Positions 1,165 to 63,769 of a DNA stretch of 64,000 bases are shown here, piece after piece; the first letter of the stretch is position 1, and the number at the start of each line of letters is the position of its first letter. The notes below the pieces were generated by a model that searched no databases, had not been told where the DNA came from, and saw only the letters and a program-made list of their open reading frames with translations. Both the position numbers and the translations under genes were made by a program. Source of the DNA: Lophium mytilinum (lineage: Eukaryota); contig MU004197.1 in assembly GCA_010093605.1 (NCBI GenBank), forward strand, positions 62,001-126,000. Direction: 5' to 3'.

Positions 1165-4100
1165 CTAATCCCTCACATACACTAGAACAGTCTTGTTGTT
1201 GTTTGCGCCCGACTTACCACCGTCCTCGATTGTAACTAAGACCACGTTCTGATGATCGAAGTGGGCCCCGTCGTCCGTACTCGAGATGGTTTCCCAGTCA
1301 CTTGAGTCAACCGTCTCCCACCCCTCGTCACTTTCTTCTGCGCAAGCTGGATCGACCCAGAAGTCATCCGTCTGCCATGCTCCTTCTTTCTGCTTTTTAG
1401 CCTCTGGCGCTGTGACGGTCTTCTCGGATGATGTTGGTGACTCCTGCTCTACAGCCCGGTCTCGTCCGTGATCTTTGTGCAAATTTTGCTTTGGAGGAGG
1501 CACAACCGGCTTGCGAATTGGGCGCGTTGATTCCAGCCAAGGTCCAATCCTGCTCACCGCCTGCTCGTGAAGCTGTTGTCTTAGCATCGCGTCTGTCTCC
1601 GGGGTTACCGATCGCGAACGATTAGAGAATGCTGAATTACAAGCTGTGCCGGTATTGGTAATAGATGGCGCGACGGGATACTTTCGCGCATTGAAGTTGT
1701 ACCACTGCGCGGGACGGTCGAGGTTATCGGGGATTATTGCCTCTTTGCTAAAGAAGTATGATTGAAGGCGGGTCTGGGTGACCGGTTTTAACTTCCCTTG
1801 AAATTGGAAAGTTACATTCCTGGAAATCCTGTCCAGCTCTGCCCACCGCAAGGATGTCTTTTTGGCGAGAATCATGGAGCGAGTTGAATCCACGATCGAG
1901 AAATCGGCCGCGTCCACGGTGCGATCTGATGGTTCCGCTGGCGTTCCAACGACCTCCAATTCCAGATCTTTCGCCAACTTGGGTAGCAGACCCAAGCTGA
2001 TATAGTGTCCGTCTAGTTCTGGGTCGCCTCTAACCTGCTGATAAGGAGGGTGGAATCCAGATTTCTTGCACCGCTCGTAAGGACCCCTAGCAGCCATACC
2101 TAGAAGCTGAGTTGCATTGAACATCCTGCTGGGTACGTGGTACCATAGCTTGAAGGTATTGTTGAGTTCAAAGAAATTGCCGGTTCTCTGATTCGAGAGA
2201 ATCTGAAAAGCATCGGCTAACTGTGAAGGCATATTGCCTAGACCAGCCAGATCTCTCGCTAAGGCCCGGAGATCTATACCGGAGCAAAACTCTGGGTTTC
2301 GCACCTTGTCGATGTAAGCCCTCGCCTTCGTTCGGAAAGTCCTGGTGCTCCACGTAGGCCACATTTGCGCGATGAACCCGAAAAATTTCCCAAGATCATG
2401 CATATCGACTAACACGTCCCTATCGGGTCCGTCCTTGGCATGGATTTTCCAAGACATGACGACGTCAAGAGTACGCCAGGGCTCGCTGCAATCGCCCTCG
2501 GACACACGGATTTGTCGAATAATCTCTTTTGCTGACCATTCCCAGTCGGGTTTGCCGAAGTCCCGAAAGATCGCATCGAGAATGGGGTGCCCAAAGGAAT
2601 AGGTCTCATCCACGTCTTCTAGGGGTTGTCGGTATGCGTAGCTATTTTCAACCGAGACTCCTCGGCAAAGCTCAGGCTTTGTTTCTCCCAAGTCCTCCTC
2701 GGCGGCTGCCATTGTTGCAGCCGATTCGGCTTTGTTGAGGAAATCGGCTACTTCAGGCATCTTGTCTGACATTTCATTGGTGACTTTGTTGTAGTACACC
2801 CGGCGACCGGAAGAGTGCATTGGCATGGACCAGGCCGCTGCAATATCTAAAGTTCGCTGATTTGCCTCTTTCTGTGCCTCTGTCTTGAACTTCTTCACGC
2901 GCTTCTTGGTGTTGTATACGGCCGTGCCAAGAATAGTGTCAGTGTGGCTCATAGGTTCATACCCCCCGGCTAGCTTATACTCGTTCCACTTCTTTTCCGC
3001 CTGTCTTAGCGCCGCCTGAGCCTGTTTTAGATACCATCCTGTGTCTGGATCCTTAGGATGATCGATTGCGTCACCGTCATCGGCAGCTTCTGGCTCGCCG
3101 TCGGTCTTGCGTTTCTTAGGTGGTTGCGTGTCACCGTCTCCCGGATTAGACCGTTTCACTGGCCCGGTATAGGGCAGGATGCCCTCGGTCTCTTGGAAAG
3201 ACGCAGCCACAAGAAGATCAGGGTACATCATGATCAGCCGCATAGCACGAACTGCCTCCTTGGTATCTTTGTAACATGCCTTCTCGAATGCTTTATCTGC
3301 GGTCGAATGCTTCTTGATCTTTGTCAAGCCGATCAAGAAGATCTTAGCACCGGATACCGTTAGGTGGTGGATGGCGATGTGTTTTGGCAGCAACTCTCCC
3401 ATTGTAACGTGCCTCGCGTGCAATTTTTCCAAGGCCGTCATAATGGCTCGGCAAAAGTGATTAGCCGCGAGTGTTCTGTCGTCTTGAGACCAGGCGTGGA
3501 AGTTCATCTTCAAGAGGTACTTGGAAAGCTCTGTCCATCGCTCCGGGGTGTTCGTCAAAATGACTCGGTATTTGCCAATGGTGCACTCGTCGAGTAACTT
3601 GAATATGGAAGGGTCATCCTACTTCAATTTAGCATCATCGTGTCATTTTGCCAGAATGGGGGAACTTACCGGCATATCCCAGCTTGCCATAGTCTTCATA
3701 ATTCGCTCACATTTATCGTCTTGTCCTGCTTCCAAGTCGTAGAACTTGCCTAGTAACCTCTTGCCATTGAACGGATGAATGACTACCAGAAAGTCCCCGT
3801 ATCCTCCCTTCTTGAGAACATAGCGCAAGCTATCCTCAACTTTGGCTTTCTCATCAGTTACTGTTTGTTCCGGCTTTTGAACCGCAACTGTAGGATCAAC
3901 TAGCGTTGCCGTCCCGTCCACGATCTGGAGTTTCTTCGCAAAGTACTCAGCCATGGTCGGAACGTCTTGAAAAGACTTGTGCGCGGCTAGCTCAGCATCG
4001 CGGACGGTCCAGATCTGAACTTTCAGTTCGTCTACCTCAACCTCATTGGCAGCTTCCGGGTTAAGATAGATCGAGCTGTGGAAAATTCCTCTCACGTGTC

Positions 4101-4605
4101 CCCCTCCAGCCCCGATTAGGTTGACGCCGTTGACAGAGAGCGCAGTCTCCGCTAGCGCCTGCAAGATCCAGAGGTTCTTGCCTTTGTCGGGTATGATCCT
4201 AAAAGCTTGTTTCGGCATGCTGTGGTAGCCTTCTGATGGACCAGGCAATTTCACATCCAAGCCACGCCCTTTTGCTGGCCTACCAGAGGCTTGCCGGCCG
4301 AACACGTAGTCGGGAAGATCCTTCCGGTGATGCAAGTAGATTACACCTGCTTCTTCTGATGAGTCGCGTACAGGATGCATATACATGTCTCCCACAGGAT
4401 TGACCACAGTCTTCCCAATGAGCTTTGTATTCACCTCTCCATCTGACCCAAACTCAGCCGCCGGAGCATGCTCAAGTCGAGTGACGTGGAATCCCTGATT
4501 CTGGTTTAGCTTGGCGGCCCTCTTGTTGTCCATTCGTACAATAACATTAGTAGGGCCGTAGAGCGCTCGGTGTTCCGGGAATGGACGACCCGGATCGGTC
4601 GCCAT
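1165..4605 (-). CDS. FHA-like + pseudokinase + WW-like + KilA-N/APSES-like protein, copy 1 (exons 4605-3670 and 3618-1165; ~1129 aa)
   Basis: A phase-0 intron at 3619-3669 (GTAAGT...GCTAAA...TAG) joins two long ORFs in frame. FHA-like YVFGR...WILQAL..TALSVNG. Kinase-like LEKLHARHVTMGELLPKHIAI lacks HRD and DFG. WW-like WSMPMHSSGRRVYYNKVT. KilA-N-like WYHVPSRMFNATQLLGMAA...QVRGDPELDGHYISL. Confidence 0.85.
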
Positions 4606-7733: not shown

Positions 7734-10700
7734 TCATCTTCCTTCGCAAACGGGCCCAGAGTCATCCGACTCTTCGCCTACCGGAACCGATTCTGGGTCG
7801 GTACCTGGGATTGCCACATCATAGGCCGTCGGTGAGGCCGTCATAGAATGGAAGTCATTTCCCGCAGCATGATCATGCCTAAAAAGGTGGAGTTCTTCAG
7901 AAACTGGAGTCGAATCATTGCCTACGTCTGAAAAGAAGGACGAGAAGTCAGAAGCCTCTATTTCCTGGCTCTCGTGCCCCAAATCTTTTTGAGTGTCAGA
8001 ATTTGTGTCCTCGCTGGGCTTGGGTACCACTGCCGCAAGATCGGGATCCCGAGTCTTCTCTTCGCGTACCATGTCGGCGTCTGGAAGAAGGCTGGGTCTT
8101 GTATGCTCGACGTGGTGGCTTCTGGGTAAGACATTTTCCACGTCAAAGTGGGGCATTGGGCCGTAGTCAGTCTCCTGACTACTTTGGTCAGGCTCCTCCT
8201 GAATTGAGGGCACTTTTTCTATTCCATCTTGGCTCGCTTTTGGTGTATCGTCCACAAATGTCTTGAGCCGGCTGTTTTCTAGCTGATCAGCGTCGGTGTT
8301 GCGGGCACTCTCATTTGAAGATGGGCCTGCATAGTTGTTCAGGTCCATTGAATAAGCGTCGTCGCAAACGCTACCTGCCATACTGGACGCCATAAACTCC
8401 TCCGACTTTGGCATTGGTACCTGTTTACGGAAGCTGTACCAAGATTTAGGTCTCCCACGGTCCGTCGGCACTTCATACTCGGGACCAAAGAAGTAAAGTA
8501 GGCGAAGCTTTTGAAGATCCCCATGGGTGCCTCTGAAATATGTCAAATTGTCCTTCCCATGCGAGTATCCAGGATACTCAACTTTGACCTTTTTTCGGTC
8601 TAGTGTTGCCCACTGTAGTGAGCTCCGCTTGGCAAGAATCTGATACTTCTTCGAGTCTACGCCCGAGAAATCGGCCGCGTCAACAGCCCGACGGGTTGCC
8701 TCTACCGGTGTTCCAACCACATGCACCTGCAATGCCCTAGAATATTTCTTGAGAAGATCCAGGCTAACATAAATTCCCTCGATCTCGTCTTCTCCAAGGA
8801 GCTCTTGGAATTCCGTGATATGCAATGATGGGTCCTTGCTAACACGCGCACGGATGGCTGGGTCTGCTAGACTAAGCAGGTTCGTTATGTTAAAGCTCCT
8901 ACTTGGTACGTGGTACCACAGGTTGAGTCCGCTCTTGATTACCAGCGCATCTATGCTTGGGGAGTTCTTGTCTCGCAGGATTTTGAAGAGCTCGGCCATT
9001 TTCGGGGGCAAGTTTTCCTTGTTAGCAAGATCGTTCGCGAAGGCTCTCACATGCCGACCTGCACAGAATCCAGCAATCCCAGGATCGTCTCGACCGTACG
9101 CTTTGAATATGGCCGCCACGATTGAGGCCCACGCCGGCCAGGTCTTCTGAACGTATCTTAAGAATCGCCGTAAGTCGGTGAGATCGAAGAGAACATCTTG
9201 TCCCGAGGCCATCTTTTTGACGCCTAACCGGAAATCCTTTGGCACGAGCAAAGCCCTGAAAGGGCAGTAGAAGTCGCCTTTTATCGTCCGAATCTCCTTG
9301 CATATAGCGATGATTGTAATGTTCCAAGAATCCGGATGGGAGCTCAATCGCGCCAATAGGTCGTCCAGAAATGGATGGCCGAGTGTGAACATCTCCTCGA
9401 TCCCCGACAGGAACTGATAGTACGCGATGCTGTTCTCGAGAATCATTTGAGTGGACGAGTTTTCTTCTTCGTCTATCGAACGATATACCCCCTTCTCCCC
9501 TGCTTGGGACTTCCTCTTCCCACTATTCAATGCTGGTTCATGCATAGGGATACCTTGAGATGGCACTTTCGATTCTTCAGGCTGCGTGATCTTACGCACC
9601 GGATGAGTCGAATAAGATGTCTTGGACATGGCATGACGGGAGAGGACTAACCCATCAGTCCCTTTCTCGCGGGTCCAGCCCCGCGGCAGCTTTAGCTGCA
9701 AATCTGCTAGTCGCTTGGCTTCTTGATTGACAGCTTTCCGGAGCCTATTTACTCGCTGGTCGGCATCGAATGCCTCCATACCAAGTAGGGTGTCTCGATA
9801 GCCAAGCGATTCATACCCTGGGTTTCCTCTGTAATCAACCCAAGCTGCTTTGGCCTGCTCGTAACCTTCGAGCGCTCTTTGAAGAGCTTCCTCGGCGGTC
9901 ATATTACTGCTGGGGGTCACACTCTTTCGTTCGTACGTACGATTCGACTGAGAATCCGGAGCTGTGCTTGGTGATTCGGAAGGTACGCGAAAGACTGGTC
10001 CCATGGAGCAACTTTCCTGTTCGTAGGAGGTTACAATGCCGAGATCTATCATAGACTTCGCAACATTAGTCATCTCAGTGAATAACATGACGGAACGGAT
10101 CAAACGCAAGCCCCACATTGCTTCTTTCCTTGACAGGTCCAAGAAGCGATGGTCTCCCGGCTGTATTATGCTGGCCTTGGAGAGATCGCGAAGCAATATT
10201 CTGGCAGTCGACGTGGTCAGGTGCGCTACGTGTATAGTACTCGCGTTGATGTTACCGTAGAGAACTCGCCTCTCGTGAAGAGTTTCTAGGGAGCTCGCGA
10301 GTTCTTTGAAGAGGCTAGCCGCCGCGGAGCATCGATCTTCCTTTCTCCACCTGTAGAAGTCGATCTTTTTGAGGTATTCCCGCAGAGGGATGTACTCCTC
10401 GCGACAGTCGGAGAGTAGAATTCGACATCGACCATACCTAGCTTCTAGGGGCAGATATTTGATGATCGAAGGATCTCCCTTTTTGAGTTAGCTTTGGGCC
10501 GTGCTTTGTCTTTACGTTGAGAATTAACTTACCGTCACAGATTCTGAGATCCTCCGCTCCAAGTCGGCTTGCTTGTCATCTCCTTTGCTAGTATCAAAGA
10601 AGGTACCAACATACTTGTCGCCAGTCAGCGGATTGATGACTTTGTAAGAACGAGTGGCAACAGGATGTTCTTTCAGGACATAGAGGTGCTGTAGCCCATT

Positions 10701-11417
10701 CTCGTTGTGCTCCCCAACTTCGGTCCTGCTATTGACTTCCTCTTTGTCATTCATGATGGTAGGTGTAGCGATGGTTGAATATATCCCAGCTTTTGTTTTA
10801 AACATGTCATCAAGTGCCATGTCGGGGAACGATTCAACTTTGTCCCCACACGCTGCCGCCTCACGAATTTGCCAAATCTCGAGCGTCAGCCCATCGACTT
10901 TGACTTTGTTGACATTCTCTGGGTCAATGTAAATTGACGATCGATTTCCCCCATTCTTAGCTGCGTAAAGTTCAAATTCATTGACCTTGATTTTGATATT
11001 CGATAGTGCTTGTAGAATGAAGAGGTTCTTCGCTTTGTCAGGGACCAGGCGAAAAGCCTTCCGAGGCATGTTTTTAAACCCGTGATTGGTGCCTGGTAGA
11101 ACGACGTCCATCAAGGAGTCTTTGTATGCCCGGTTATTTGTGTCGCGTCCGAAAGTATAGTCAGAATAACCGTCTTGTTCATGGAGGTAGATGAAGCCGC
11201 CTTCAACAATGAGGTCGTCGTCCGACGATCGCTCTTTGCCATTTACATTGTGGTCCTTTCGAGGACGTTTTGTTTGATGGTGACCGTACTCCTTGACATT
11301 ATAGTAGCGGTTTTGGTTGAGCACGATGGTAGAGTTGTGTTCAACTTTGATGATGAGGTTGATGGGGAGACCGTAATGCTCATCAGGGGGAGAGGGTCGG
11401 GTGGAGTAGAGGCTCAT
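7734..11417 (-). CDS. FHA-like + pseudokinase + WW-like + KilA-N/APSES-like protein, copy 2 (exons 11417-10533 and 10478-7734; ~1209 aa)
   Basis: Phase-0 intron at 10479-10532 (GTAAGT...GCTAAC...AAG). Exon 2 reads GDPSIIKYL...LETLHERRVLYGNINASTIHV. WW-like LPRGWTREKGTDG...STHP. KilA-N-like WYHVPSRSFNITNLL...GIYVSLDLL. Collinear with copy 1. Confidence 0.85.
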
Positions 11418-15004: not shown

Positions 15005-15180
15005 TGGTTTTTATGACTTTGGCGCCTTTGCACATTAGTAATTTAGACTTAAAGCGACTTGCCATATGCCTACGTTACACTAGTATAGCACTGCTAAGGA
15101 TATTCCATTGAGCTTCCCGTATTCTAGACACAAGTTCAGAAATCGAGCCACTGCCTTATGACTGACCAGCTATCTACTGG

Positions 15181-18413: not shown

Positions 18414-21400
18414 TTAGCCACCTAGGTGATTAAGCGCCCTAGTCTTTGCCCCTCGCGGAATTGGCACCCGCGTTGGGGCTGCGCCAACGACTCGTGTTTT
18501 GCGAGTCCTCTTCTTCGCGGGAGGCTGTGCTGTTGGTGCAGCTTCTTCAGACTCCACCACCGCTGCCACTGGTTCTTCGGGTGCAGAAGCCTCCGCGATT
18601 GGTACAGCTTGCTCCGTCTCCAGCACTGTCGCCACTGGTGCTTGGACCACTACAACTTCGTCATCCTCATTGTCCTGTTCTAAAATCTTTTCCGACTCTG
18701 GTCGTGGGGATGGAAGCGCTGGGCCCGCTTGAGTAATGAGTGAATCTGGCTCATTTTCCGCCTGTTCTTGGGTCGGAGGTCCGGTTCCAGAGTCAGAGGT
18801 CGCTTGTGACGTAGATGGTGATAGATATGCTTTAAAGCTGTGTGGCGGAGTAAAGCTTTGTGCTCCTCTGTCGGCAGAACTTAAGGATGTAGCTTGTCCC
18901 GGCGATGCAGGTCCTGGCGGCTGTGTAACCTGGGTTCGTAGCGGAGATCCCGTCTGCACTCCAGCCTCCACATGGATTGGAGACGTAGCTCGTTCCAGTG
19001 GTGTAGATGGCGACAATTGACTCATTGGAGCCGCTACACGGTCAAGATCTTCGAGTTGAGGAACTTGTGTATCGGCAATAGAAGAATCGTCCCTTTCCAA
19101 TGGCCTAGGAACCATTGAGTGAAAATCGGGACCGATGACACGCTCGTGCGCAGAGTGGTAATTCTGTGTCGACGGAAGCGACGAATGGGGGCTAGGCACC
19201 ATAGCCTGGAAATCGGGGCCGAGGACTTGGCCGTGCTCAGAATGGTAATCCTGTGTCGATGGCAGTGAAGGATGTGGGCTGGGAATCATCGACTGGAAGT
19301 CAGGACCGAGAACAACTTCGTGCTCAGAATGGTAGTTCTGTGTCGATGGAAGCGAGGGGTGTGGGCTAGGCACCATTGACTTGAAGTCAGGACCAGTAGC
19401 AACCTCGCGCCGAGAACCATACCCTCGCGTGGATGGAAGTGAGGGATGTGGGCTGGGCACCATCGCCTCGAAGTCAGGACCAATAACAATCTCGCGCTGA
19501 GAACCATATCCCCGCGTTGATGGAAGTGAGGGATGTGGGCTGGACACCATCGCCTCGAAGCCAGGACCAAGAACAACCTCGCGCTCGGAACCATACCCCC
19601 GCGTCGACGGAAGCGAGGGACGAGGTTTGGTCACCATTGAGCGAAATTCTGGCCCAGTAGTTTCATTGTGCTCGGAACTCTGCTTCTGCGTCGATGGAAG
19701 CGAGGCATGGGGTTTGGGAACCATTGACTGGAATTCAGGACCCAGAACATCCTCGATCTCGGAAATGGATCCCGGTTGGCATTCTGAGCTCCGCTCCTCC
19801 TCCTCTTGGTACTCATCCTCCTCTGGGTACTCCTCCTTCTCTGGGTACTCCTCCTCCTCCTCTTGGTCGCTCTGAGTTTGCAGCAGAAATCGGATCCGCT
19901 TCGCACTTGGCAGTGGCACTGCCTTAGCATCCACAAGCTCATGCTTCCTCTTCTTGTCTCGATTAAGATAGGCTTTTCGCAATGTCTCCGCCATAGCTTG
20001 GCTGGAGTTCAAACTCGTGAATTTGGAGTCGTCGCGCCGCTCGGGTCGAGGAACGGAAAGAACCTGCTGTGCAATGTTTCGCCGGGAGAATTTGAACCCT
20101 CCTTCCGGCCGGTCGTCCACGCGGCGCTTCGGGCTCTTTGCGGCTAGTATTTCTTCTATCAGCGAGATGCGTGGCTGATCAGTCGGAAATATCGACCAGT
20201 GACGAGGTGCAGACCGGTTCGCGGGGAGGTTAAGTTGCTTTCCCTGACAAAAGTTCTGTTCGAATGTGTTCAGTGGGAAAGTATGGCCGCACCACTCTAC
20301 GATGTCTTCATCCCGATGTAGTAAAGCCAGATCGAGAAAATGCGGAATCATGAGGATGATCTTAGCCTGCCAGTCAACATTGGCAAAGCTTGTTTGGTCG
20401 ATGGCGGATTGGTCCCATGACTCGCGAAGTATTTCTTCCCGATCCGGAACTCGAAGATGCAGCTTTTCCATGAACCATTCCAGGCTCCGAATCAAGGCGT
20501 ACCGCCCTCGGATCCTAGGGTCACCTTGAATTTCAGGAACCTGTTGCGTCGGATATGCAGCGCGGCGCCTGTCCATGATCCTGTGAAGATAGTCCGGATG
20601 AGCAATACAGAGCAGCTGCGTAAGATTGAACATCCTTGATGGCTGGTGATACCATATATAGAACGTGGCCGTAAATCTCAAGCTGGACTTCTCTTTGCCC
20701 GTGCCCTGAAGAGTCCTATAAGTAGCGACTGCTTCGCTGAGGATCGATGGAAGAGGCTTTTTCCTCGCAAAAGCACGAGCGAAGGCATCAACATGGGTCA
20801 AGGTGCAGAACCCTGTTCCACGACCATCTGGAACGTACTCCTTGCAAAGAGAGACTATGTCTTTCCTATGATCAGGATACATGTCTATGCAACAAAGGAC
20901 GTAGTCTAGGAGGGGCTTCAACTTCACTAGCGCGTCTCCATGCTTTCGCTGGTAAACGGGAATATAAAAATTCCTCAGAACTTTTATCTGACTCCAGTAG
21001 TGAACCTTGTTACCTCCAATGGATCGGACTATTTTGTTCACGTCGGAGACGGTATATGCCCTAATCCCGCTCGACACTTCGTTCACGATCCGATCCAGAG
21101 TCAGGTGGCCCAGAGTATATCCTGGGTGGATGACTGGCGGTGCAAGGAATCGCCTTGATTGTAACATAGCCGCTGCCCTCGTCGAGTCTCGCTTGGCGAT
21201 AGCATCAAGTACCTTGTTCCCGAGTCGGTCAAATTCCAAACCATCGCTATCGTCGGGATAGTTTTCGGCGTCGGTATAGGTGCGTCTAGCAGCCACCAGA
21301 GCTTTCTGCGCGAGGCTATGTGTGTGCCAAGCATGATTATCCTGATCCAATTCGGGTGACTCCAGGTGGGCACCTCTTAGACGCCCAGGAATGTCCTCCA

Positions 21401-22885
21401 TGCGCAGGAACTGTGCAACGACCCTGACGATAGAAGACAGGTCAAACTCGAATAATGCCTGGGTAGTATCGCCTGCCTCCAAGACAATGCTGTTGGAGAA
21501 CCCGGTTAAACATAGATCAGCACCGTTGCGTCCTAGATCGTGGACAAGGACTGTGTCCATGCTCAAGTTGTTGTGCGCCGTAGATGTCTCGTGCATTGTC
21601 TCCACAATGTTCAGGAGTGATTTCATCAGCCAGAGCGCTCCTCGGTGGCGATCCTCCAGGTTCAACTCTTGAGCGTTCTCATTCATGAACTTACGAAGAG
21701 TTACGGCGCGTTGATGATATTCCCCTAGCAAGATCGGTACACCTTTCACGGTGATTGGCTTGCGGAATCGCGCGATTGAGAGAATTGTCTATAAGAAACG
21801 TATGTCAGTCATCTGAATGAATTATGTTCAAGCAAATAGCAAGGGGAGTTTTTACTTACATGCAATCCGTTCACCAATTCGAAATGGTCGTTGGCCATTT
21901 TATGTCCCGAATATCCCTTGGGAAGTATATGTGCCACGAGGTGTTCGCCATTGAATGGATCCAATGCGAGATACGTCTCGCGTCCCGACTGCGAGGGCAG
22001 TTTGTGAGATCTCAGGACATATATCTGAGTTTCCTCTTCAGCCCGAATACGAGATTTCCTCAGCAGCAATCTATCGTCTACCGATGCCTCGTTGGCCTGT
22101 GCGTTGGTTGCTCCGAAGCTCGCGCCAAGTTTCTCGAGTTTGGCAAAGTCCGAAGACAGAGAAGATCGCGCACAAACACTCGGTAGTCGAATTGGGTAAA
22201 TATAGATCACGATACCCTCAATCTTGACGACATTCCGGGCTTCTGGATTCAAGAAAATCTGATATCGATGGCCAGTCGCATTGCTCTTGGCTTGCATATA
22301 GACATTGTTGACGACAGCAAGCGTAGGAGACGTAGAAGTAACTTCGAGACACCAAGCGTTGGCAACTCGGTCAGGAAAGACGTGGAAGTGTTGTCGACCG
22401 ACCGTGTTTTCGCCATCCTCGGCTGGTACAAGCACGGCACACTGCGCACTTCGGCCGAAGTAGTAGTCGGGGTAGTCGTCATCGTCGTGGAGGAGAACGT
22501 AGGTGCCCACAGGGCCGTTGCCAATCTTCGGTGGCGTTTCGCGTTCTTGCAGCCATGCTTCGCGATCCAGGTCGTTCGGGTTGTAGTGCCTAATATCCAC
22601 TTCCCTGCCATCTATTCGTTTGTAAAGTGGCTCCTTGGAATATCCATGTCGTAGTTCCTTGGCGGCGGCCTCCGCAGGGTTTTGCCACTCTTTGCTGGTC
22701 CTGGAATCGAAGATCTGATAGGAACGGGACAAGGGAACTTCGCCAGGTGCCGTGTACCGTCCGTATTCATTGACTGCATTGGCGCCTGCGTGGTGGACGT
22801 GTACGAGCAGATTGACCCCCGCAGGGCTGTTTTTGACAAGAGCAATAGGTAGGTCCGGGGACGAGTTGGTGAAATACGGATTCAT
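18414..22885 (-). CDS. FHA + pseudokinase + KilA-N/APSES-like protein with tandem-repeat tail, copy 3 (exons 22885-21860 and 21788-18414; ~1466 aa)
   Basis: Phase-0 intron at 21789-21859 (GTAAGT...ACTGAC...TAG). Clearest FHA of the three: YYFGRSAQC...VGRQHFHV...WCLEVTS. Kinase-like METMHETSTAHNNLSMDTVLV-type segment followed by LTGFS. KilA-N-like WYHQPSRMFNLTQLLCIA...EIQGDPRIRGRY. Confidence 0.85.
19105..19750 (-). repeat. Coding tandem repeat, 87 bp (29 aa), ~7.5 copies
   Basis: Unit GPDFxxMVPSPHPSLPSTxxYxSxxExVx. The motif ggaagcga/ggaagtga recurs at 19348, 19435, 19522, 19609 and 19696. Confidence 0.95.
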
Positions 22886-27885: not shown

Positions 27886-30800
27886 CTAGGCGCTCTTCAT
27901 CCGTTTTGCGCGCAACGGGAGAGCAGCGACGACTCGCACCTGTGCGCCCTGAACTGCAAGCGAATCATCGCCTTCGCGTCGCCTCTTTTGGCCGGCCACA
28001 AGATTTGCCTGCACTAGAGCCGACCCTGTCACCACGACCGTCTGTGGAGGAGGAGTACTTGGGGAGTTCGCTGCGGGAGTGAGATTTGCCTGAGCAGGAG
28101 CGGACCCTGTCACAATGACTGTTTGTGGAGGAGAGTTACTCGGGGAGTTCGCTGCCGGGGTGAGATCTGTTCGGGTGGTTTCGAGAAAAGATGGGCTTAG
28201 AAGGAATTTGGCTGAATCATCCGCAGAGGATGGTGTCGATTTAGCGTTCATGTCCCACTGTCCTACTCCGTCAATCCCGAAGTCGCTGCTCGAGGCTTCA
28301 AAGGCGGGGACAAGACCCCTTGGTCCTTCCAGAACCCCATGCGATCTTCGGCGGCGGGGTGTGCCGGCGCGAGATCTCTGGCTCCTAATAGGAGTGGCCA
28401 AAATCTCTTTCAACACTTCGTAGTCGTCTGAGAAATCAAAGTCTGGAATGTCCGGAAGAGAAGATGACGGGGCCTTCTTCGCACTGGTCTTCTTGTGAGG
28501 GCTAGGTTGGGTTGTCTCATTCTCACCCGGTTCCCCTGGCATCACTTCGGCAGGTTCTTCGACCCTACGCTTCAGAACACCCTTCTTCGGTGGAGGAGCG
28601 TCTTTGGAGCGTGGAAGCTTCTTCAGCTTCAGCTTAGGCATTCTATCCTCATCGGCAGGAACTTCAGCCCTGCGCTTCAGAGCACCCTTCTTCGGCGGGG
28701 GAGCATTTCTGGAGGACGGGAGCTTCTTTAGCTTGGTCTCTCCCGCGTTGAGTCTCTTCATTTCGCGGTCTGCCTGCTCTTCAATCAAGTAGAGGTCCTC
28801 GAGGGATGGATTTGACCGCGACACTGGGGAGTTGGTCCTTGTGAAACCGCTCTGTTCCCATCTCTCCTTCATGTTGAGGAAAACTGGGTCATCCCAGTCC
28901 GCTCGCTCTGGCCCCTGGGACTTCCATCTCTTGATCTTGTCGCTGTTATTTTCAAAACGATGAGAATTAGTACTGTCGATGGAAACCTGCTGCGGTGTCG
29001 ATGGTGTAGCCTTTGCGGTGCCGTAGTCTGTCGTCGGCAGAATCAAGGTGTCCGACGGTGGTTCTGATAGCTTAACAAGATTGGAATCTAGGGTCTGAGT
29101 GCGTTGTCGCTCTTTGGAATCCGGATTCTCATCTACAGAGCCTTCCTCGGGAGGTTCAACTGACAATCGGCTAGAGTGCTTGAAGGCTTGTTGTGTATCC
29201 GCACTCGCCGAATCGCCATAGACTCCCGGATCCTGGAGCTGATGGAAATACTCAGGCCCAGAGGACGGACCCTCTCCATTTTCTTTGATAATTGGCGCAT
29301 CCTTCTCAACAATTGGAGGCGGCGCCGTGAGTAGGCTGTCCTGTGGTGGTACTTCAGGACGTCGACTGCTGCGCTCCTGTTCCCTGAACTCCTGTTCTCT
29401 GAGCTCCTCCTCTGACGCTCTCCGCTTGCCTTTATCCCTTGACTTGCTCTCGGCATTTGTTTCGGCAAGACTTCGAGTAGTGTTACCGTGCATTTCGTAA
29501 ACCATGTCGCCCAAGAATCCCGAGCCTTGGTTCTCTGCTTCATTTGTTAACTCGTTGGTTTGAGTAATGCTAGTCTGGGCCTCGGACAAATCGGCCAGCC
29601 TCCCCTCAGCCTGGCCGCCATCAGCGGATGGCTTGGTTGTACCGGCTAACCTACCCTCAGCGCCCGCAGAGATAAGTGAGTTTCTAATCCCCAAGTTCGC
29701 AGATTCGGTACGCGTGTTTGCTGCAGATCTAGGCATTATGCGGAATCCTGTGACGTCTTCAGCACCATCTTTGTTTACCGACATACCCGCGTATTCGGAA
29801 GAGGGAGCTGGCATTGGCCATGCCAATGGTCCCAGAATGCTTGAGATGATATGTTCGGTACGAGTTGGCGGCAGAGACTGTGCGGTCAAGATATTTTCGG
29901 GTCGTTGCTGAGGACCGGGACCTAGTAGCTGTTGGCCAATTGCGTTCTGGGATGACGCAGACGACTGCTGGAGGTTTTTGACGAAACTTAGCGAAGAAGC
30001 CTCAGAGCTGCCATTTACTGTGTAATGCGAGTCGCAGTTGGTCATCCGAAAACGATACTCTGGGTTCTCAAACTGCGCCGTGACCGCTGCTCCCGAAGCC
30101 AAGGATGTGCCATTTTGGCCAACGGGCGCATAGCTCATATCGGTGGAGTATGGAAGATTGATCGATTTCTCCAAATGCTCTGCCGGTAAAAGCTTCCGTG
30201 GCAAGGCTCGAGCATAAACCAAGCCTAGTGGTGAATCTAGCGACACGCCGTCCAAGGCGTTGGAGATGGAGTCTACAATATCATCTGTTATCACCATGGC
30301 ATCGTTTGCCTCGACTCTGAAGTCCTGATTGCTAATGATCCCGTGAACCGTTGGCGATTGGGGAGCTTTCTGCGATAATTGAGCCGGCAAAATAGATACT
30401 AAGCCAACGAAAGACGACGTCGTTACCCCAACATAGGGGACTATCTGGCCAGCATTCTGGGAGCTCGGGAGGATGTTCAAGGTATTAGGAGACGCTGTTT
30501 TTGACGAAGTTTCACTAGACAGGTCCATGTCCATTTCATTTGTATCTTGAACTGCCGATGTCTGAGAGGTGGTTTGCGTCGCATACTCCGGTTCGCTGAT
30601 TGTTGGCTGGTCAGAAATGCGGTCTTCTGCAGACGAAGTTCCGTCGTCCAGGTTTTGTATGGTCCGGGAGGGTCTAACGGGCTCATCCACTATTGCAGTG
30701 ACTCCAGCCTTGATACCCGAATCTGATCCATCTTCTTTTGCAGCCTGCTCTACAGTGTGTTCCGAGACTGGTGCAATTGGGCCGGAAATTGGAAGCATCG

Positions 30801-31551
30801 CGACACCTGGCAGGCCCGGTATGGCCGTTTCCTGGACTGCAGGGACTTTGTTGACAATGTCCAGATATCCTGCGCGAGCGAGTAGTAGCGGCATGAGCGA
30901 ACACAAGATAGCTGCGTTCGACTCTCTGTAGTCATGACGCAGAGTGAGAGCCGCGCAGTGAGTCGCGTACCAGGGGAAGGTTATGGCATTGTGCACGACA
31001 AGCCTCATTGTCGACAAGATGGTAACGTCTCCTGCAGACCGAAAGAACATTGTTGTAACATCTTCTGGGGTGCGGAGCGCCGCCTTGCGCGGTGCGCACC
31101 AATGTTGAGGTTGGATAGGCAAGTCCTCGGCGTGGTCTGCGGCACGCGACGTCAAGGTGATCGGTTCAGATAGAACGCTCTGTGACGGAAGCGTTGGACT
31201 GTTGATGAGTTGGTGTAGCAGTGCCACAGAGACACACAAGGCCTCTGGCTTGGACTGGGCGACGAGGAGTCCGATGAAGAGGGAAACACGGAGAGTTGTG
31301 GGCGATTGTATCCACGAGGTAAGAAGGCTCGATGTGGAATTCGGAGGGAGAGGAGCGATGGGTTTAGGGCCATGTCGCGATGTCCGATCGGGCGGCGTAT
31401 CATCTTGCGGCTGGTTCTCCGCGTGGAGAGGTCGGGTGGAATGTTCTACCCCGCGGTCGTGAGGATGAAGTATTGGGCCACCGATGAAAACTCCATTGAA
31501 ATGGTAATGGACGTTTTGGATGTTCTGGATGTTCTGGATGGGGGTAGCCAT
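27886..31551 (-). CDS. Large low-complexity hypothetical protein (1221 aa)
   Basis: Uninterrupted 3.67-kb ATG-initiated ORF with a duplicated basic motif KLKKLP.S..APPPKKG.LKRR and duplicated LTPAANSPS.PPQTV.VTGSA. No domain recognised. Confidence 0.75.
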   Translation of the reverse strand: MATPIQNIQNIQNVHYHFNGVFIGGPILHPHDRGVEHSTRPLHAENQPQDDTPPDRTSRHGPKPIAPLPPNSTSSLLTSWIQSPTTLRVSLFIGLLVAQSKPEALCVSVALLHQLINSPTLPSQSVLSEPITLTSRAADHAEDLPIQPQHWCAPRKAALRTPEDVTTMFFRSAGDVTILSTMRLVVHNAITFPWYATHCAALTLRHDYRESNAAILCSLMPLLLARAGYLDIVNKVPAVQETAIPGLPGVAMLPISGPIAPVSEHTVEQAAKEDGSDSGIKAGVTAIVDEPVRPSRTIQNLDDGTSSAEDRISDQPTISEPEYATQTTSQTSAVQDTNEMDMDLSSETSSKTASPNTLNILPSSQNAGQIVPYVGVTTSSFVGLVSILPAQLSQKAPQSPTVHGIISNQDFRVEANDAMVITDDIVDSISNALDGVSLDSPLGLVYARALPRKLLPAEHLEKSINLPYSTDMSYAPVGQNGTSLASGAAVTAQFENPEYRFRMTNCDSHYTVNGSSEASSLSFVKNLQQSSASSQNAIGQQLLGPGPQQRPENILTAQSLPPTRTEHIISSILGPLAWPMPAPSSEYAGMSVNKDGAEDVTGFRIMPRSAANTRTESANLGIRNSLISAGAEGRLAGTTKPSADGGQAEGRLADLSEAQTSITQTNELTNEAENQGSGFLGDMVYEMHGNTTRSLAETNAESKSRDKGKRRASEEELREQEFREQERSSRRPEVPPQDSLLTAPPPIVEKDAPIIKENGEGPSSGPEYFHQLQDPGVYGDSASADTQQAFKHSSRLSVEPPEEGSVDENPDSKERQRTQTLDSNLVKLSEPPSDTLILPTTDYGTAKATPSTPQQVSIDSTNSHRFENNSDKIKRWKSQGPERADWDDPVFLNMKERWEQSGFTRTNSPVSRSNPSLEDLYLIEEQADREMKRLNAGETKLKKLPSSRNAPPPKKGALKRRAEVPADEDRMPKLKLKKLPRSKDAPPPKKGVLKRRVEEPAEVMPGEPGENETTQPSPHKKTSAKKAPSSSLPDIPDFDFSDDYEVLKEILATPIRSQRSRAGTPRRRRSHGVLEGPRGLVPAFEASSSDFGIDGVGQWDMNAKSTPSSADDSAKFLLSPSFLETTRTDLTPAANSPSNSPPQTVIVTGSAPAQANLTPAANSPSTPPPQTVVVTGSALVQANLVAGQKRRREGDDSLAVQGAQVRVVAALPLRAKRMKSA

Positions 31552-32222
31552 TGTGCCTGCCCGGTACTGGGTAAAGGCACGATGTCAGTTGATGTATCAA
31601 AGGGGGTTGTGATAAGGAGAAGCTGATGGTGTGGGCTGAAAAGTTTGTGGCGCACAACAGTGGATGAAGCAGGAAGGGCAAGATGGTGTGGGCGATGGGT
31701 GGATGCGCTAGACGTACCTGACGCTAGGCCCGGCGTTGATGTTAGTGAATGAGAGAAACGGACTAGGCGTGAACTTGACAGCAGATTAGCACGATACTCT
31801 CTATTCGTATAGTAAGGAGGCGCATGTAATATATGGAGGATATGAGAAACATGATAGCATACCTGTGAGTCCCGAGAGCGACTCGAATGGGAGGTGTTAC
31901 AGAGTGTATGGCGGTTAGGTAGCTGAAGTTGTTGGGGGGCTCCAAAAGCTTGAAGAGAGGTCGTGTTGAGAAAAGAGAGCTTGCTGCAGCTCCGTCGGAG
32001 GAAGTAGTCTAAAGACGCCCAAAGGTAGGTCACGCGAGTCTCTATTGCTGCGATGATTGGAGGAGCTAGCCTCAAATATCATTCACTGCCTTTTTGATGG
32101 TGCCAGGTTTATTATTATGTAACAACATATAGCTACATCAACAGATACTATCAACACAACACACCACTCACACTACTTCGGTCTCACTGCAGCACCACAG
32201 AAACTCAAAAGCACTGTCCACT

Positions 32223-33734
32223 ATGAACGATCTACAGGAAAAGTTCCGCAAACTCAGCCTTGCCTCGAATCCAGCAACTCTCAGCGACTTACCCACGGAA
32301 CTGGCGCACATCATTTGCGAGCATCTTGATACGATGGCCCTGCAGTCACTACGACTGGTCAACAAGATGTTTTGCGACGTCGTAGACGAACATCTCATAC
32401 CGAAGGTTACCTACCGTTTCCAAGAAAAGTCTTGGAAACATCTGGATTCGATGCTTAAACACCCAGTGTTCAAGAACCAGATTACTGCCCTGTGTATCGA
32501 CACTAGAAGTGTTATCTATAATATTACAGACGATGATCGCCGCCAATACTTGGAAATGCTGCCAGCGCGTTTCAAACTTCTCTCTTTGACCGGCATCGAA
32601 TACCTGATCGAGAATGACCCGTCTTTTCTTTCGGAGATTAGTCATCCCTCTTTCAACATCTGTGATCTACTTGGGAGGCTGAAGGACCAACAACAGCAGG
32701 CGAAATGGCAGACAAAGCTGTACGCTGTCAGGGAATCTCTTGGCGTCGTCAAAGGGGTAAAGAGTAAACCCCGCAATCATCTCACGAAGTTACTGGCATC
32801 CATGCCAAAGTTGACCGACGTCCACATTCGATCGAAATACCCGGGGGGGTCACTCATTCACAAGGCCGTGGATCGCCGCACATGCTTAGTCAACGGTTCG
32901 GCTAACGGTGACATCCGGAATTTCAATATGATGCACACGCTTTTCTTGGCCTGCAGCCACTCGAAGAAGACAATTACCAGACTGACCGTCGACAAGGTCA
33001 CACACCACTTCCTTTTCAACCGTGCTGCTACCTCTGAGAGCAAGACAAGGGGCAGGCGGATTGATCAGGTCACAGAAAGCTTGAACAGCATCAGTCTCGA
33101 GGTAACTGCCAATGAGAAGGGGTGGAATCCTGAAAATTATACTACGATTAGACACTGCCGCCAGGTGTTTGTGGGCGGTCACTTCTACGACTTCATTCGA
33201 AACATGACAATGCTACGCACAATGCACGTCAGGATGAGCCCAACCTTCTTGCTAGTACCGCGCACACGCCGAACGGTCTTTCCTGGAGTTTTCAGCAGCA
33301 TGTTCGGCCAGGCCATCTGGCCTAAGCTTGAGGAGTTCTCCATCGGCAACATTGAAGCTAGCGAGGAGAGCTTGATTTTCTTCATCTCTGCCCACAAAGC
33401 CACGCTCAAGAAATTCCATCTCGAAACGATCATGCTTTCCACAGGCTGCTGGGCATCGCTTCTTCCTAGGCTCCGGGACGTTATCGCCTCTACGGATACC
33501 AAGCTCGAAACCATCACCTTGCGCGGTCATCTATTGGAGCAGGTCAACGATCCCCGCATCGCCTTCGAAGAGATCATTTGCGATGGTGTCGATGGCTTCC
33601 AAGCTAGACGAGCACAAGCACAGCAGACTCAGGTCGAAGCCTACATCAACAACGGGGGCCGATGCCCAGTGACCATGGACAACCCGCGATGCGAGCCCCG
33701 TCGCCATCAGCCACTCTTTCCGGTCATCTTTTAA
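32223..33734 (+). CDS. F-box protein with an LRR/RNI-like C-terminal region (503 aa)
   Basis: N-terminal LSDLPTELAHIICEHLDTMALQSLRLVNKMF is an F-box motif. C-terminal WPKLEEFSIGNI...HKATLKKFHLETIML...W is typical of fungal F-box families. Confidence 0.85.
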   Translation: MNDLQEKFRKLSLASNPATLSDLPTELAHIICEHLDTMALQSLRLVNKMFCDVVDEHLIPKVTYRFQEKSWKHLDSMLKHPVFKNQITALCIDTRSVIYNITDDDRRQYLEMLPARFKLLSLTGIEYLIENDPSFLSEISHPSFNICDLLGRLKDQQQQAKWQTKLYAVRESLGVVKGVKSKPRNHLTKLLASMPKLTDVHIRSKYPGGSLIHKAVDRRTCLVNGSANGDIRNFNMMHTLFLACSHSKKTITRLTVDKVTHHFLFNRAATSESKTRGRRIDQVTESLNSISLEVTANEKGWNPENYTTIRHCRQVFVGGHFYDFIRNMTMLRTMHVRMSPTFLLVPRTRRTVFPGVFSSMFGQAIWPKLEEFSIGNIEASEESLIFFISAHKATLKKFHLETIMLSTGCWASLLPRLRDVIASTDTKLETITLRGHLLEQVNDPRIAFEEIICDGVDGFQARRAQAQQTQVEAYINNGGRCPVTMDNPRCEPRRHQPLFPVIF

Positions 33735-34691: not shown

Positions 34692-36247
34692 TCAATCATC
34701 CAACTCCCATTCCCTATCAGTATCCTGCGTAACTGGGCAATCCCCCCCGTTCACCAAGTACTCGCGAAGCCTGCCAGCCGCCCTCGGCTGACTGAAATTG
34801 TATGCTCTGAAGCGCGCTGGCGGCGAGGAACCATCCTCACATTCGTAAAGACCGCCTTCAAATGAGACATGGTGGATTGACCCGACGTTGATGATCCCAT
34901 GTAGTCGTGGCAGGGCAGAAAACCAGGCTCCAGCCATGAGTTTGATGCGTCGGATCTCCAGAACCTCAAGAGTATTGCCGTATCTCCGCAGAAACGCAAC
35001 CAGCTCCTCTTCGGCAGTGGCGATGTAGTTTAGCTTTAAGACCTTCAAGTTGCGCAGATGTAGTGTGCCAAACATTTCACCCAACGATATCCATGTAACA
35101 TTCCGGCGTGAGATTGGGCGCATGTGATGGGATTGGAGAGTAAGTTCCTCCAGCTTCTTCAGGTTTCCCAAGAACGCCGTGAGATGGCCACTCCTCCAGG
35201 AATTTGAGCTGGTGACCCAATCCGCGCCTTCAAAGTGCAGCTAGGAATCTCCGTTGATGTTGTACCAAACAGCCGGCCTGAAGTTGATATGTAAATGGGT
35301 GAGGTTGGCTGTTACTTATGCCATATCGTCCGTACATCCATCCAGTATTCTAAGAAGCGTTGGGAAAGCTGTTTAATAGATAGTCTCTTCAGCTTTATTC
35401 TAGCGTTTAAGTATGCTATTAGCAATATTAGTAGCTGGTGTTCCCCCGTCTTAAATCTTGGTGCTCGCAGTCCGTTTGTATATATCTACTAAAGTGTGTT
35501 AAATTCGCCTCGTGATAGTTTGATACTCTGTAGGGCTGGAAAACTCTTCACAACGCGCGAGACCATTTCCCAGGCCTTGTTTCCCTCCTAAAGTTTCCTT
35601 TGCCAGCTATAGAGGTCGCAGTACTGCTGGTAAGCCTAATCGACCAATGAGTTGGCTGGGATAATATCCGGGCGGTTGGATACCACGGATGCGACCCTGG
35701 AGTACCAGATAGCCCACGTTTCTGCCGGGTATTTGCGAAGATCCACCGTAAGCTCCTTAATAGCATTCTGGTAGAGCTCGCGGTTGGTGTTGGCGAGGCA
35801 GTCTCTGTGCATGGTTGGATTACGGCGCTTGATATCTTGCTGAATCTTGGTGCCATCTATCGTTGGAAAGAGGCCAAGTTCCTGGGCTTTTGTTCACGCA
35901 GTGTGCCATTTGAAGATTACATTAAAGAACGCGCGATCGGCGAGGTCTGGAATGGTGCAGCTCCTATTCAGTCTGAGAGTGCTAACATGTGATGGAACAG
36001 CTTGATGTCGCAGAATCTTGGATATCTTATTGAAGCTCTCTGGCTCGAATTCTACGGTGACGCGATGCAGAATGTGACTAGCTCCCATCTCACCGAGCGT
36101 CTTGTTGGTAAGACGGAGGGACATGAGGTCGGACACATCGAGATGGTCGCAGATCAGGTGAAGGATCTCCGCAGCGAGGGCATCAATACTAGTCTCTGCG
36201 CCATCAAGCGCCATTCGCGCCAGAATTTGTTGTAGTTCTTCTGTCAT
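34692..36247 (-). pseudogene. F-box pseudogene, paralog of 32223-33734
   Basis: F-box IDALAAEILHLICDHLDVSDLMSLRLTNKTL. C-terminus LREYLVNGGDCPVT matches VEAYINNGGRCPVT. In-frame stops at 35894 (TGA) and at 35636, 35588, 35489 and 35486 (TAG). Confidence 0.85.
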
Positions 36248-36409
36248 TAAAAGACGAGGTGTGCAGGGGCAGGAGTGAGACGAGAGGTTGGGGGGAGACG
36301 TTCTGTGGGCTGCCTGTGGAGTGAAGAGGAACGAGGCGTCGGGGAAATGTTTTTGCGGTCGGGAAGGACTATGATCTTGTAACAGATCGGTGTTTCTGTA
36401 GCAAGGGTA

Positions 36410-36810
36410 TAGCATTGTCTGAGGTGGCCCAGCCAGCTTTTGGGGTGTCGAGGTGCTTCAGACGGCGGCATCCTGGCAATATTGGGCTCACCACACAGTG
36501 ACGTTTCAAGAGGTGAAGAGATATGATCTGACATAAATCGAGATTTAGAGCTTCAAATCTTCCTCTCACTGCGACGTGGAGAGCACCGTCTGAGGTGGCT
36601 AGAGGGGTTTTGTGGTGGTCCAAACACTCCTATCTGCATTTCCGTCAGATAGTTGAGGCATCTCAAACGGCGGCGGACCAGTGTGCGCAGTTACGGGGAC
36701 AGGTCTTTAAGAAAAATGATATAGAAGCTTGACCGAAGATGGGCAAGTATTTTAGAGCTAGAACTCCAGCTTTCTTCACAACCGTATGTGGCACTGCCTG
36801 AGGTGGTCCA
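36410..36810. repeat. Cluster of repeat-family cores in both orientations
   Basis: Reverse cores (ctgaggtgg) near 36419, 36590 and 36799. Forward cores near 36450, 36484 and 36655. Confidence 0.55.
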
Positions 36811-39249: not shown

Positions 39250-39450
39250 TTGCAAGCTGGACACCACTGTTGAGGGCGGCCCCATCGCGAGGATATATCT
39301 TGGTCAAAAGGAAGCTTGGATCACGCGGTCTAAAACTTGACATAACGCCTTGCTACTACGGTACTAGGCTACAAGTCTAGGCACATAGATATAGCACTAT
39401 TCAAGTATTGCTCTTGCAAGCTGGACGCCACTGTCAGAGGCAGCCCCATC
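39250..39450 (-). repeat. Two tandem units of the repeat family, reverse orientation
   Basis: gcaagctggacaccactgttgagggcggccccatcgcgagga at 39252 and gcaagctggacgccactgtcagaggcagccccatcgcgagga at 39416 (164 bp apart). Confidence 0.85.
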
Positions 39451-42163: not shown

Positions 42164-42952
42164 GTTGTCGGTTGGTTGTTGGAAGATGGTAGTCTGTGAA
42201 GAGTTAGGGGAGTCGAAGCGGTGCATATGGTTCCATCACCTTTGGTATGCGAAGTTTCGGTTGCGGCTGTGAGAAGAATCAGGTTTCCTGACAAGGCTGA
42301 GGTTGCGTTGACTGTGGACGAAGATGGAGAGTTGGAGGATCCATGGAAGATAGATATAGATCGATCGGGCGCGCACGTTCACGGCCCGCCCGATCGGTCC
42401 ATCCAAGATCCCGGGTGCGCTTAGCGATCGATTGGCGGACGACGTCATTTTCTTCAAGATCATACTCTTATTCACTATTCCTTACTTAGTTAAGGGGCTG
42501 TGTTATATGATTTGAGTAACGATGTTTGGACTGGAGGATCGTAGTATTCTAATAGAGTCTGCTGAGAGAAAATGCCGCAGACCAAGGTTGCACTTGTGAA
42601 GCTATGCTCGTGATGTATATTGTACGCATGCTAGCGAGCTGTACAAAGCAGATGCGAGCACGGCGGTGTTCGGGCCAATCCGTCAAAATTAACTTATTGA
42701 GATAGTTGATTTTTATGCGATTTCCAATTCTAGTTTTGAGCGCATCAATGTAACCATACTTCGAGGGTTTAGCTAGAGACACTGTGATAAGTAGAGGATT
42801 GATACGACGGATGAGGCGGAAAGGAGGTCGTGGGGCGAGCGACGTTCCACGGAAGTTTCCGGACGGAACCGGAGCGGCCTTTAGTTTAGCCGAAGCTTAA
42901 CGCGACCGCAGCATCGTTCCATCCCAAAACACCACCAGCACACATAGCCATC

Positions 42953-44134
42953 ATGGCGCCGCAAAGTCGAGGCAATACCGTACCTGCGGGCTTCCAATCG
43001 AAGTCTACCCCCAATCTCCCAACCCTCCGCTCACTGGAAATGACGCCCGCCTCGAAATCCGCCCTCGCATCGCCCGAAAATCAAGCACACTCGAGCGGTC
43101 CCCTCGTATCTCCTACCATAACCACCTCCTCGTCCGAACCGCTATCCGAACCTCCCTCTGTACCCGCCTCCGTGGAAGACAACGATGAGGATGAAGAAGA
43201 CGACGATCTCTTCGGGATGAACCCCTCAGACTCCGACAGCGACAGCGACCCGAACCCCGCGCCCGCCTCGCGCCCCCTCTATACCTCCCGCTCGCACACC
43301 CACCTCCCGCCGCATACTGTTAGCAGCCTCTTTCCGCCCTTCTACAATCGCCCGCCGACGCCACTCCCTCCATCGCCGAGTCTCACCTCCCTCCTCCGCC
43401 CCTCCTTCAGCACCCAGACCTCGCGCCCAACCACCCCCGACAGCTCCGACGTCGACATAACTACAACTCCCAACTCTTCCGCTACCCTAGCCCGCCTCAC
43501 GACCTCCGCGCGTGCCGCGCCAACCGTGCCTCGCGCGAGCCCCAAGGTCCCGACCTACGAATACTACGGCTTCGCGCTCTACCTCGCCAGCAGCGCCGCG
43601 TTCTGCATGTACATACTCTGGGCATACCTCCCGTCGCCTTTCCTGCATCAACTGGGGATTCACTACTTCCCGGACCGGTGGTGGGCGCTAGCCGTGCCAG
43701 CGTGGCTGGTCGTTGGGGTGGGATGGATATACGTCGCGCTGGCGAGCTATAATACTGGATACCTGACGCTACCTCTCAAGAGCTGCGAGAATTTGGTGGA
43801 TGCGTGCGCGGCGGTTGCGGTGGTGGATCGGCGGAACGGGAAGATTGTGAGGGGCCGCGCGCGGCGGGTGGAGGAACGAGAGGGGGGGAAGGGCGGGACG
43901 AGGAGTAATTCGCTGAGTCTGTATCAGTATGGCGCAGAGGAGGAGGTTGATTGGAGGAGGTTGTGGTCGATGGGGACGGATGCCGTTATGGATGTGCCGA
44001 TTGGAGGCGTCTGTGAGATTCTGTATGGGGATGGGCGGGATAGAGAGCCCTGGGAGATGGAGAGCAATGCTGGGGATGATAGTGGGGAAAAAAAAGTTGG
44101 GATGTCGCATCATAGAGAATCAGCTGAGACCTGA
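42953..44134 (+). CDS. GPI19: GPI-GlcNAc transferase subunit P (PIG-P/Gpi19) with a fungal N-terminal low-complexity extension
   Basis: PIG-P signature YEYYGFALYLAS...YILWAYLPSPFLHQLGIHYFPDRWWALAVPAW and C-terminal VMDVPIGGVCEILY. Confidence 0.92.
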   Translation: MAPQSRGNTVPAGFQSKSTPNLPTLRSLEMTPASKSALASPENQAHSSGPLVSPTITTSSSEPLSEPPSVPASVEDNDEDEEDDDLFGMNPSDSDSDSDPNPAPASRPLYTSRSHTHLPPHTVSSLFPPFYNRPPTPLPPSPSLTSLLRPSFSTQTSRPTTPDSSDVDITTTPNSSATLARLTTSARAAPTVPRASPKVPTYEYYGFALYLASSAAFCMYILWAYLPSPFLHQLGIHYFPDRWWALAVPAWLVVGVGWIYVALASYNTGYLTLPLKSCENLVDACAAVAVVDRRNGKIVRGRARRVEEREGGKGGTRSNSLSLYQYGAEEEVDWRRLWSMGTDAVMDVPIGGVCEILYGDGRDREPWEMESNAGDDSGEKKVGMSHHRESAET

Positions 44135-63696: not shown

Positions 63697-63769
63697 CTAT
63701 AGTGTTGTTAGCAATTGCATGCTTCTGTGACGCTTATGAAGTACAGTGACAGGCCGCAAGTCTAGGCAC

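Follow-up and report, generated by a model that had tools for sequence, protein, structure and literature searches.

What can a fungal protein do that carries the folds of a checkpoint kinase and of a DNA-binding domain, and has lost catalytic and phosphopeptide-binding residues? The question is raised by a gene of Lophium mytilinum (assembly GCA_010093605.1) in positions 62,001 to 126,000 of contig MU004197.1. This stretch of 64,000 nucleotides is called the window, and positions below are counted from its first letter. The gene, copy 1 of three related ones, occupies positions 1165 to 4605 on the minus strand. The computational analysis showed the domain folds and their order, the loss of catalytic and phosphopeptide residues, the open spliced frames, and the presence of the family in four classes of Pezizomycotina. 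The cellular location, binding and pathway of the protein we infer: with about even confidence, it is a non-catalytic nuclear scaffold whose ancestor arose long ago when a Rad53-type FHA-kinase was joined to a KilA-N/APSES tail, and it would serve chromatin docking and partner recruitment.

Folds and order of the domains

The start codon ATG of copy 1 is at 4605, and the spliced product has 1129 residues. Its parts are listed below.

3670..4605, minus strand: exon 1, 312 codons, encoding the FHA-like domain and the kinase N-lobe; the same splice is used in the database gene call P0001
3619..3669, minus strand: intron of 51 nt, phase 0, with a GT donor, a branch-like site and an AG acceptor
1165..3618, minus strand: exon 2, 817 codons plus stop
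4000..4548, minus strand: FHA-like domain, exon-1 residues about 20-202; Gly-Arg retained, Ser, His and Asn of the phosphothreonine set gone
3214..3828, minus strand: pseudokinase N-lobe and C-lobe to helix F, spanning the intron; beta-3 Lys retained; boundaries drawn from alignment
3106..3123, minus strand: putative basic cluster, read from the sequence, which we take to resemble a classical nuclear localisation signal (NLS)
2599..3213, minus strand: insertion in the kinase C-lobe, consisting of a loop, a long helical hairpin (about 3036-2851), the WW-like unit and a linker
2755..2844, minus strand: WW-like unit; first Trp, central aromatics and final Pro retained, second Trp replaced by Asp
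2494..2598, minus strand: last kinase C-lobe helices, past the insert, mapped by model and structure alignment
2449..2487, minus strand: first KilA-N strand, before the inserted subdomain, from structural alignments to 1bm8, 1mb1 and 4ux5
2179..2451, minus strand: inserted subdomain of about 90 residues in the KilA-N hairpin, from secondary structure; possibly a degenerate second KilA-N repeat
1933..2178, minus strand: KilA-N/APSES-fold core, the best-conserved family block, with an altered wing motif
1684..1917, minus strand: conserved beta-rich C-terminal subdomain, from alignment and model; no significant KilA-N similarity
1168..1671, minus strand: acidic tail, unconserved, 167 residues, net charge -10

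Profile and structure searches placed the FHA fold N-terminal to the kinase fold, and supported the order of FHA, dead kinase, WW insert and KilA-N that a first-pass annotation had proposed. The top PDB match of the family profile was Rad53, spanning both FHA and kinase (E 1e-16). The family N-terminal profile recovered the Rad53-like locus of the same genome (L033) as the top among nine FHA loci (E 4.5e-20), and this normal-looking Rad53 coexists with the family. For a full-length model of the relative P0008 (predicted local distance difference test, pLDDT, 92.9; predicted template modelling score, pTM, 0.89), the nine best Foldseek rows were all Rad53 or Chk2. The checkpoint-kinase origin, at first described as Chk2/Rad53/Mek1-like, is thus narrowed to the Rad53 type. 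Kinase structures align across the insert up to model residue about 516, with model helices at 386-446.

The KilA-N-like block had been called the best-conserved part of all three copies, and this was confirmed. It lies at 2145-1963 in copy 1, at about 8918-8718 in copy 2, and at about 20654-20448 in copy 3. It holds the densest invariant run of the three-way alignment, with 12 invariant columns among exon-2 residues 492-509. The family profile of the block matched a comparison profile of just three sequences, all APSES domains of the same genome, with an hhalign probability of 80.7 (E 1.3e-5). When 37 sliding windows of the family alignment were compared, the six overlapping the block gave probabilities of 3-77, and the other 31 gave 0.46 or less. 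The core is the most conserved part, with an Asn and a Gly invariant in 72 of 72 rows. The model of the C-terminal region of copy 1 (pLDDT 88.5) predicts an Mbp1-type winged-helix fold: Mbp1/PCG2 were at ranks 1, 3 and 4 of 338 in the Foldseek search of the PDB, KilA-N/N1R-p28 proteins were at ranks 1, 2 and 4 in a viral library, and after re-alignment seven of the 14 entries listed were Mbp1, PCG2 or Bqt4. With Pfam PF04383, no match above the curated cut-off was found in 80 family proteins or in the three isolated blocks, and a genome search with it found four places, all outside the cluster.

When aligned by structure with 1bm8, 1mb1 and 4ux5, the model is covered from residue 46 to residues 228-244. 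Because this long span holds just 83-96 aligned residues, a subdomain of about 90 residues must interrupt the KilA-N hairpin. The order of strands and helices in this subdomain resembles the core, and in global hhalign it scored against the core better than 38-40 of 40 column shuffles. Against APSES alone, 11-15 of 40 shuffles reached its score, and local hhalign of the flanking subdomains gave E 0.09-0.5. The shuffle counts are conservative, since the outlier scores near 130 that some of them include are probably artefacts. A nested second KilA-N repeat is plausible, though unproven. For the last subdomain, 2-40 of 40 shuffles reached the score; a third repeat there, in a subdomain not folded alone, was unsupported by hhalign and shuffles.

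The WW-like unit was recognized from a 39-residue piece of copy 1. Among 24 PDB sequences matched at E ≤ 10, 23 contain WW, the best being Prp40 (E 0.0033). The Pfam WW score of this piece, 14 bits (E 0.053), is below the cut-off of 26.9. With the first Trp and the central aromatics, the sequence is consistent with a three-stranded WW pattern. In copy 2, the first Trp, the Gly and the final Pro can be aligned, and the segment has no Pfam match; in the three-way alignment copy 3 is devoid of it.

The profile and structure check proposed earlier thus returned FHA, kinase, WW and KilA-N in order, while single copies were silent in Pfam: none of the four families matched any of the six exon-length pieces. 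At E ≤ 0.05, Pfam recognized Pkinase in 34 of the 80 proteins (7 above cut-off), FHA in 10 (4 above cut-off), and KilA-N and WW in no whole protein. Weak unrelated Pfam rows from the exon-length pieces, such as Kdo (E 0.03), were dismissed, as was the single row of a phmmer search of exon 2 against the PDB, Hermes transposase (E 0.58), taken as chance. Three-sequence profiles found nothing credible in the PDB, and a 24-sequence C-terminal profile found one unrelated row. Penicillin acylase clusters in the ESM Atlas (0.96; recognition 1704, below threshold) were rejected, conflicting with the model and all other searches; a distant member gave no usable match there.

Residues lost and retained

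The FHA phosphothreonine set (Arg, Ser, His, Asn) and the kinase catalytic motifs were taken as the reference. At the four FHA positions copy 1 has R, P, A and T, and across 44 family sequences R is retained in 27, S in 7, H in 9 and N in 4. The pseudokinase of copy 1 is without glycine loop, HRD, DFG or activation segment, and the beta-3 Lys is its sole retained catalytic residue. This Lys is present in 41 of 44 aligned kinases, copy 1 included, and absent from copies 2 and 3. Asp is found at the DFG position in 25 of the 44 and at the HRD position in eight; two have both Asp, neither with the Asn, and the catalytic Asp, the Asn and the DFG-Asp occur together in none. The APE segment is missing in 37, and distant members retain HRD and APE-like motifs. 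The second Trp of the WW ligand groove is lost as well.

A report on PCG2 describes the wing motif QXGXGXXQ as reading the core site, and Q89E as abolishing binding (PMC4333399). In the family, the Q82-equivalent is R in 88%, G is found in 100%, an acidic residue (E or D) follows, and the Q89-equivalent is E in 60% or Q in 32%; copy 1 has Asp at this position. QXGXGXXQ, with which the Mbp1/PCG2 subfamily reads CGCG, is thus not found. Because these residues are replaced, reading of MluI cell-cycle box (MCB)-type sequences by the family is unlikely. Helix A retains T in 86%, Q in 82% and R in 57%. The median net charge in the family is -1, compared with +4 to +7 for APSES, and copies 1 and 3 have +4. 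A non-canonical contact of the core with DNA or chromatin is predicted and may occur. The earlier proposal of a fusion to a DNA-binding domain therefore stands for the KilA-N fold, and not for a working DNA binder, given the replaced wing motif and the effect of Q89E in PCG2.

Paralogues, relatives and genomic setting

Copies 2 and 3 are in the same orientation as copy 1, and each carries an intron, again of phase 0, where the alignment places that of copy 1.

7734..11417, minus strand: copy 2 (= P0002), exons 11417-10533 and 10478-7734; 36% and 31% identity to copy 1, by exon
18414..22885, minus strand: copy 3, exons 22885-21860 and 21788-18414; P0004 starts further upstream; without WW; long tail

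The tail of copy 3 includes six to seven tandem repeats of 87 nt (29 residues) at 19145-19753, and 14 SQ/TQ dipeptides in 565 residues. When the 43.4-Mb genome was searched with four single proteins, no place beyond these three turned up for the family, such counts being lower bounds. A profile of the three copies detected 80 representatives at E ≤ 0.001 among 1.84 billion sequences, three of them the window's own. A word-indexed protein search returned the gene itself only; with a distant member as the query it returned two proteins, and the Pseudocyphellaria member came from this separate search. Among 30 clusters looked up, 25 were single-member and 10 had an organism name: Mytilinidion, five Pleosporales-type genera, two Chaetothyriales, and Cudoniella. 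Taxonomy look-ups of five of these names gave Dothideomycetes, Eurotiomycetes, Leotiomycetes and Lecanoromycetes; the remaining named genera presumably fall in the classes generally assigned to them. The relatives are named "hypothetical", "uncharacterized" or kinase-type in their sources.

In the C-terminal region, copy 1 has 77% identity to its nearest relative, P0003 from Mytilinidion resinicola, and 17-37% to 70 of the 71 other rows. P0003 and P0045, both from M. resinicola, have consecutive accession numbers, which suggests a tandem arrangement there too. The P0003 record seems to be a fusion of the copy 1 orthologue and the N-terminal half of a further paralogue with its own WW-like segment, and P0045 is possibly the C-terminal half of that paralogue. 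The distant member P0052 has an RNase H2 subunit B domain at its end, probably through a gene-calling fusion. In a C-terminal tree (63 of 72 rows), which was not used for ordering events, copy 1 was grouped with P0003 and copy 2 (support 0.985), and copy 3 was placed weakly.

P0001, called independently, has the identical splice at 3669-3619. It adds a second intron, with splice-like signals, leading to the open reading frame at 568-822 as a third exon that lengthens the acidic tail. This minus-strand frame of 84 codons is acidic, and its Trp-Glu/Asp repeats resemble the copy 1 tail. Judged from the sequence, either 3' end may be right, and the P0001 extension is a candidate.

Telomere repeats open the contig, which puts the cluster 63-85 kb from the chromosome end. 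Next to the repeats come about 15 kb of AT-rich DNA whose dinucleotide signature is like that of repeat-induced point mutation (RIP) (G000:C17:1-15000; L017, L018); across the cluster, the first 24 kb of the window, indices are normal and no RIP signature was found. Most of the neighbours are orphans; the 25 frames scanned with Pfam include F-box and RING genes. Two F-box genes and a PIG-P gene are at 32133-33734, 35894-36457 and 42890-44134. On the telomere side (L021, L022) there are three RING genes, one F-box gene, a CorA-like frame and a flavin-containing monooxygenase (FMO)-like frame. Very long minus-strand frames of low complexity (900-2200 codons) are found at 27886-31584, 44916-51110, 52594-55392 and 59652-63707 and at L023-L026; no Pfam family matched them above cut-off. 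An intergenic repeat of about 151-163 bp with a two-part conserved core forms arrays at 33.9-34.7, 51.4-52.1 and 56.5-59.3 kb, and is present as single copies near 15156, 17810, 27374, 37463, 39250-39445 and 63858; its strict pattern has 27 exact matches genome-wide, compared with 0 for the reversed control. The DUF3435 Starship captain had no match in the genome, in a search in which the control was likewise unmatched. Viral contig and phage records gave no match to the genome's own APSES domain, which was the query in place of the family.

Relation to known systems and possible roles

Rad53/Chk2 (PDB 5xzv, 5xzw, 3i6w) share with the family an FHA domain followed by a CAMK-like kinase fold, and are the top profile and structure matches; Mek1 and Dun1 are looser likenesses. 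Rad53 has a second FHA after the kinase. The family has a KilA-N tail instead, as well as the helical and WW insert in the C-lobe, and lacks the phosphothreonine set, the catalytic set and the activation segment; no SQ/TQ cluster was found in the first 85 residues of copy 1, before the FHA. Predicted topology and the conserved Asn, Gly and aromatic positions are shared with KilA-N/APSES domains (PF04383; Mbp1 1bm8, PCG2 4ux5, Bqt4 5ybx; poxvirus N1R/p28), while the family differs in its wing, one residue shorter and without QXGXGXXQ, its hairpin insert, its position below Pfam detection, and its location C-terminal to a kinase. Known fungal KilA-N factors generally have the domain with ankyrin repeats or alone. 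The WW-like unit of copy 1 resembles WW domains (PF00397; Prp40, Pin1, YAP) in the first Trp, the central aromatic strand and the final Pro, and departs from them as described above. The degenerate FHA and WW, the interruption of the KilA-N fold and the wide spread of the family had been overlooked in the first-pass annotation.

The "pseudokinase" PUK1 of Fusarium graminearum is alike by description, as a kinase gene of a filamentous fungus with a stage-specific role. Its genomic stop codons are reported to be repaired by A-to-I editing (PMC4817773). PUK1 was set aside as an analogue, being dead via stop codons, whereas in the family the frames are open and catalytic residues are lost. No title or abstract on an FHA-kinase-KilA-N fusion was found in the open literature, subscription journals being outside the scope. 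All parts are known folds; no description seems to exist of their combination, of the nested insert or of the all-degenerate state. Some database entries of other ascomycetes may pair kinase with APSES annotation, and the wider architecture may therefore be already on record.

In the nuclear scaffold proposed here, the FHA, pseudokinase and helical hairpin would pack into a single rigid platform. The KilA-N core would dock this platform on DNA or chromatin via helix A and the Arg-Gly wing, without MCB-type reading, and the variable parts, WW insert and acidic tail, would recruit lineage-specific partners. The role of the protein, alongside the checkpoint pathway, would be that of a regulator or adaptor rather than of an enzyme. 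Basic NLS-like clusters visible in the sequence were counted for this reading.

It is possible, at a lower confidence, that the protein is an adaptor for proteins only: the KilA-N fold would have lost DNA binding, which the Swi6 N-terminal domain also lacks, and would bind peptides instead, like the Bqt4 APSES, and the acidic, aromatic tail could fill the peptide groove. Bqt4 shows that the APSES fold can bind acidic peptides (PMC7464478). However, few surface positions are as conserved as the wing Arg-Gly and the polar residues of helix A, which lie on the DNA face of PCG2, and copies 1 and 3 are net basic there.

A role in conflict is rather unlikely. A dead Rad53 mimic would guard, jam or bait the DNA-damage pathway, in connection with viruses, mobile DNA, non-self nuclei or meiosis. 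The degeneration of all four modules with their folds nonetheless kept, the rapid divergence and the many single-member clusters, the tandem copies near a telomere among orphan, F-box and RING genes, and the adjacent accessions in M. resinicola fit such a decoy, as does the occurrence of KilA-N in DNA viruses as well as in fungi (PMC4862756). On the other hand, 80 Pfam scans contained no death, nucleotide-binding leucine-rich repeat (NLR) or toxin domain, and ordinary orthologues that evolve fast could account for the main Pleosporales-rich clade. A more specific version, equally doubtful, makes the family an undescribed "all-pseudo" nuclear class of Pezizomycotina, in which a Rad53 mimic with a nested virus-type KilA-N pair would sense damaged, foreign or meiotic DNA structures, tune or hijack the checkpoint in the manner of a decoy, and diversify in subtelomeric tandem arrays under genetic conflict.

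An atypical active or nucleotide-sensing kinase, in which ATP binding or non-standard phosphotransfer would switch the KilA-N tail, is improbable: the frequent beta-3 Lys, the DFG-position and HRD-position Asp of some members and the HRD and APE-like motifs of distant ones speak for it, but the glycine loop is gone, the two Asp rarely coincide and never with the Asn, copies 2 and 3 have no Lys, and copy 1 has neither Asp. Functionless decaying pseudogenes or a chance arrangement, suggested by the erosion of every active site, are hardly credible in view of three uninterrupted frames of more than 1100 codons with a shared intron, the close C-terminal match to P0003, a block common to 80 clusters, and the absence of RIP from the cluster.

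According to PMC4862756, the KilA-N domains of fungi are few and monophyletic, were acquired from a virus, and belong to regulators of the cell cycle and of development. The family widens this inventory by a Pfam-invisible lineage that is fused to the frame of a checkpoint kinase and occurs in four filamentous ascomycete classes. Its relatives range from near-complete kinases to fully dead ones and constitute a natural series for the change from kinase to scaffold, and a Curvularia relative makes deletion, localisation and DNA-binding work practical.
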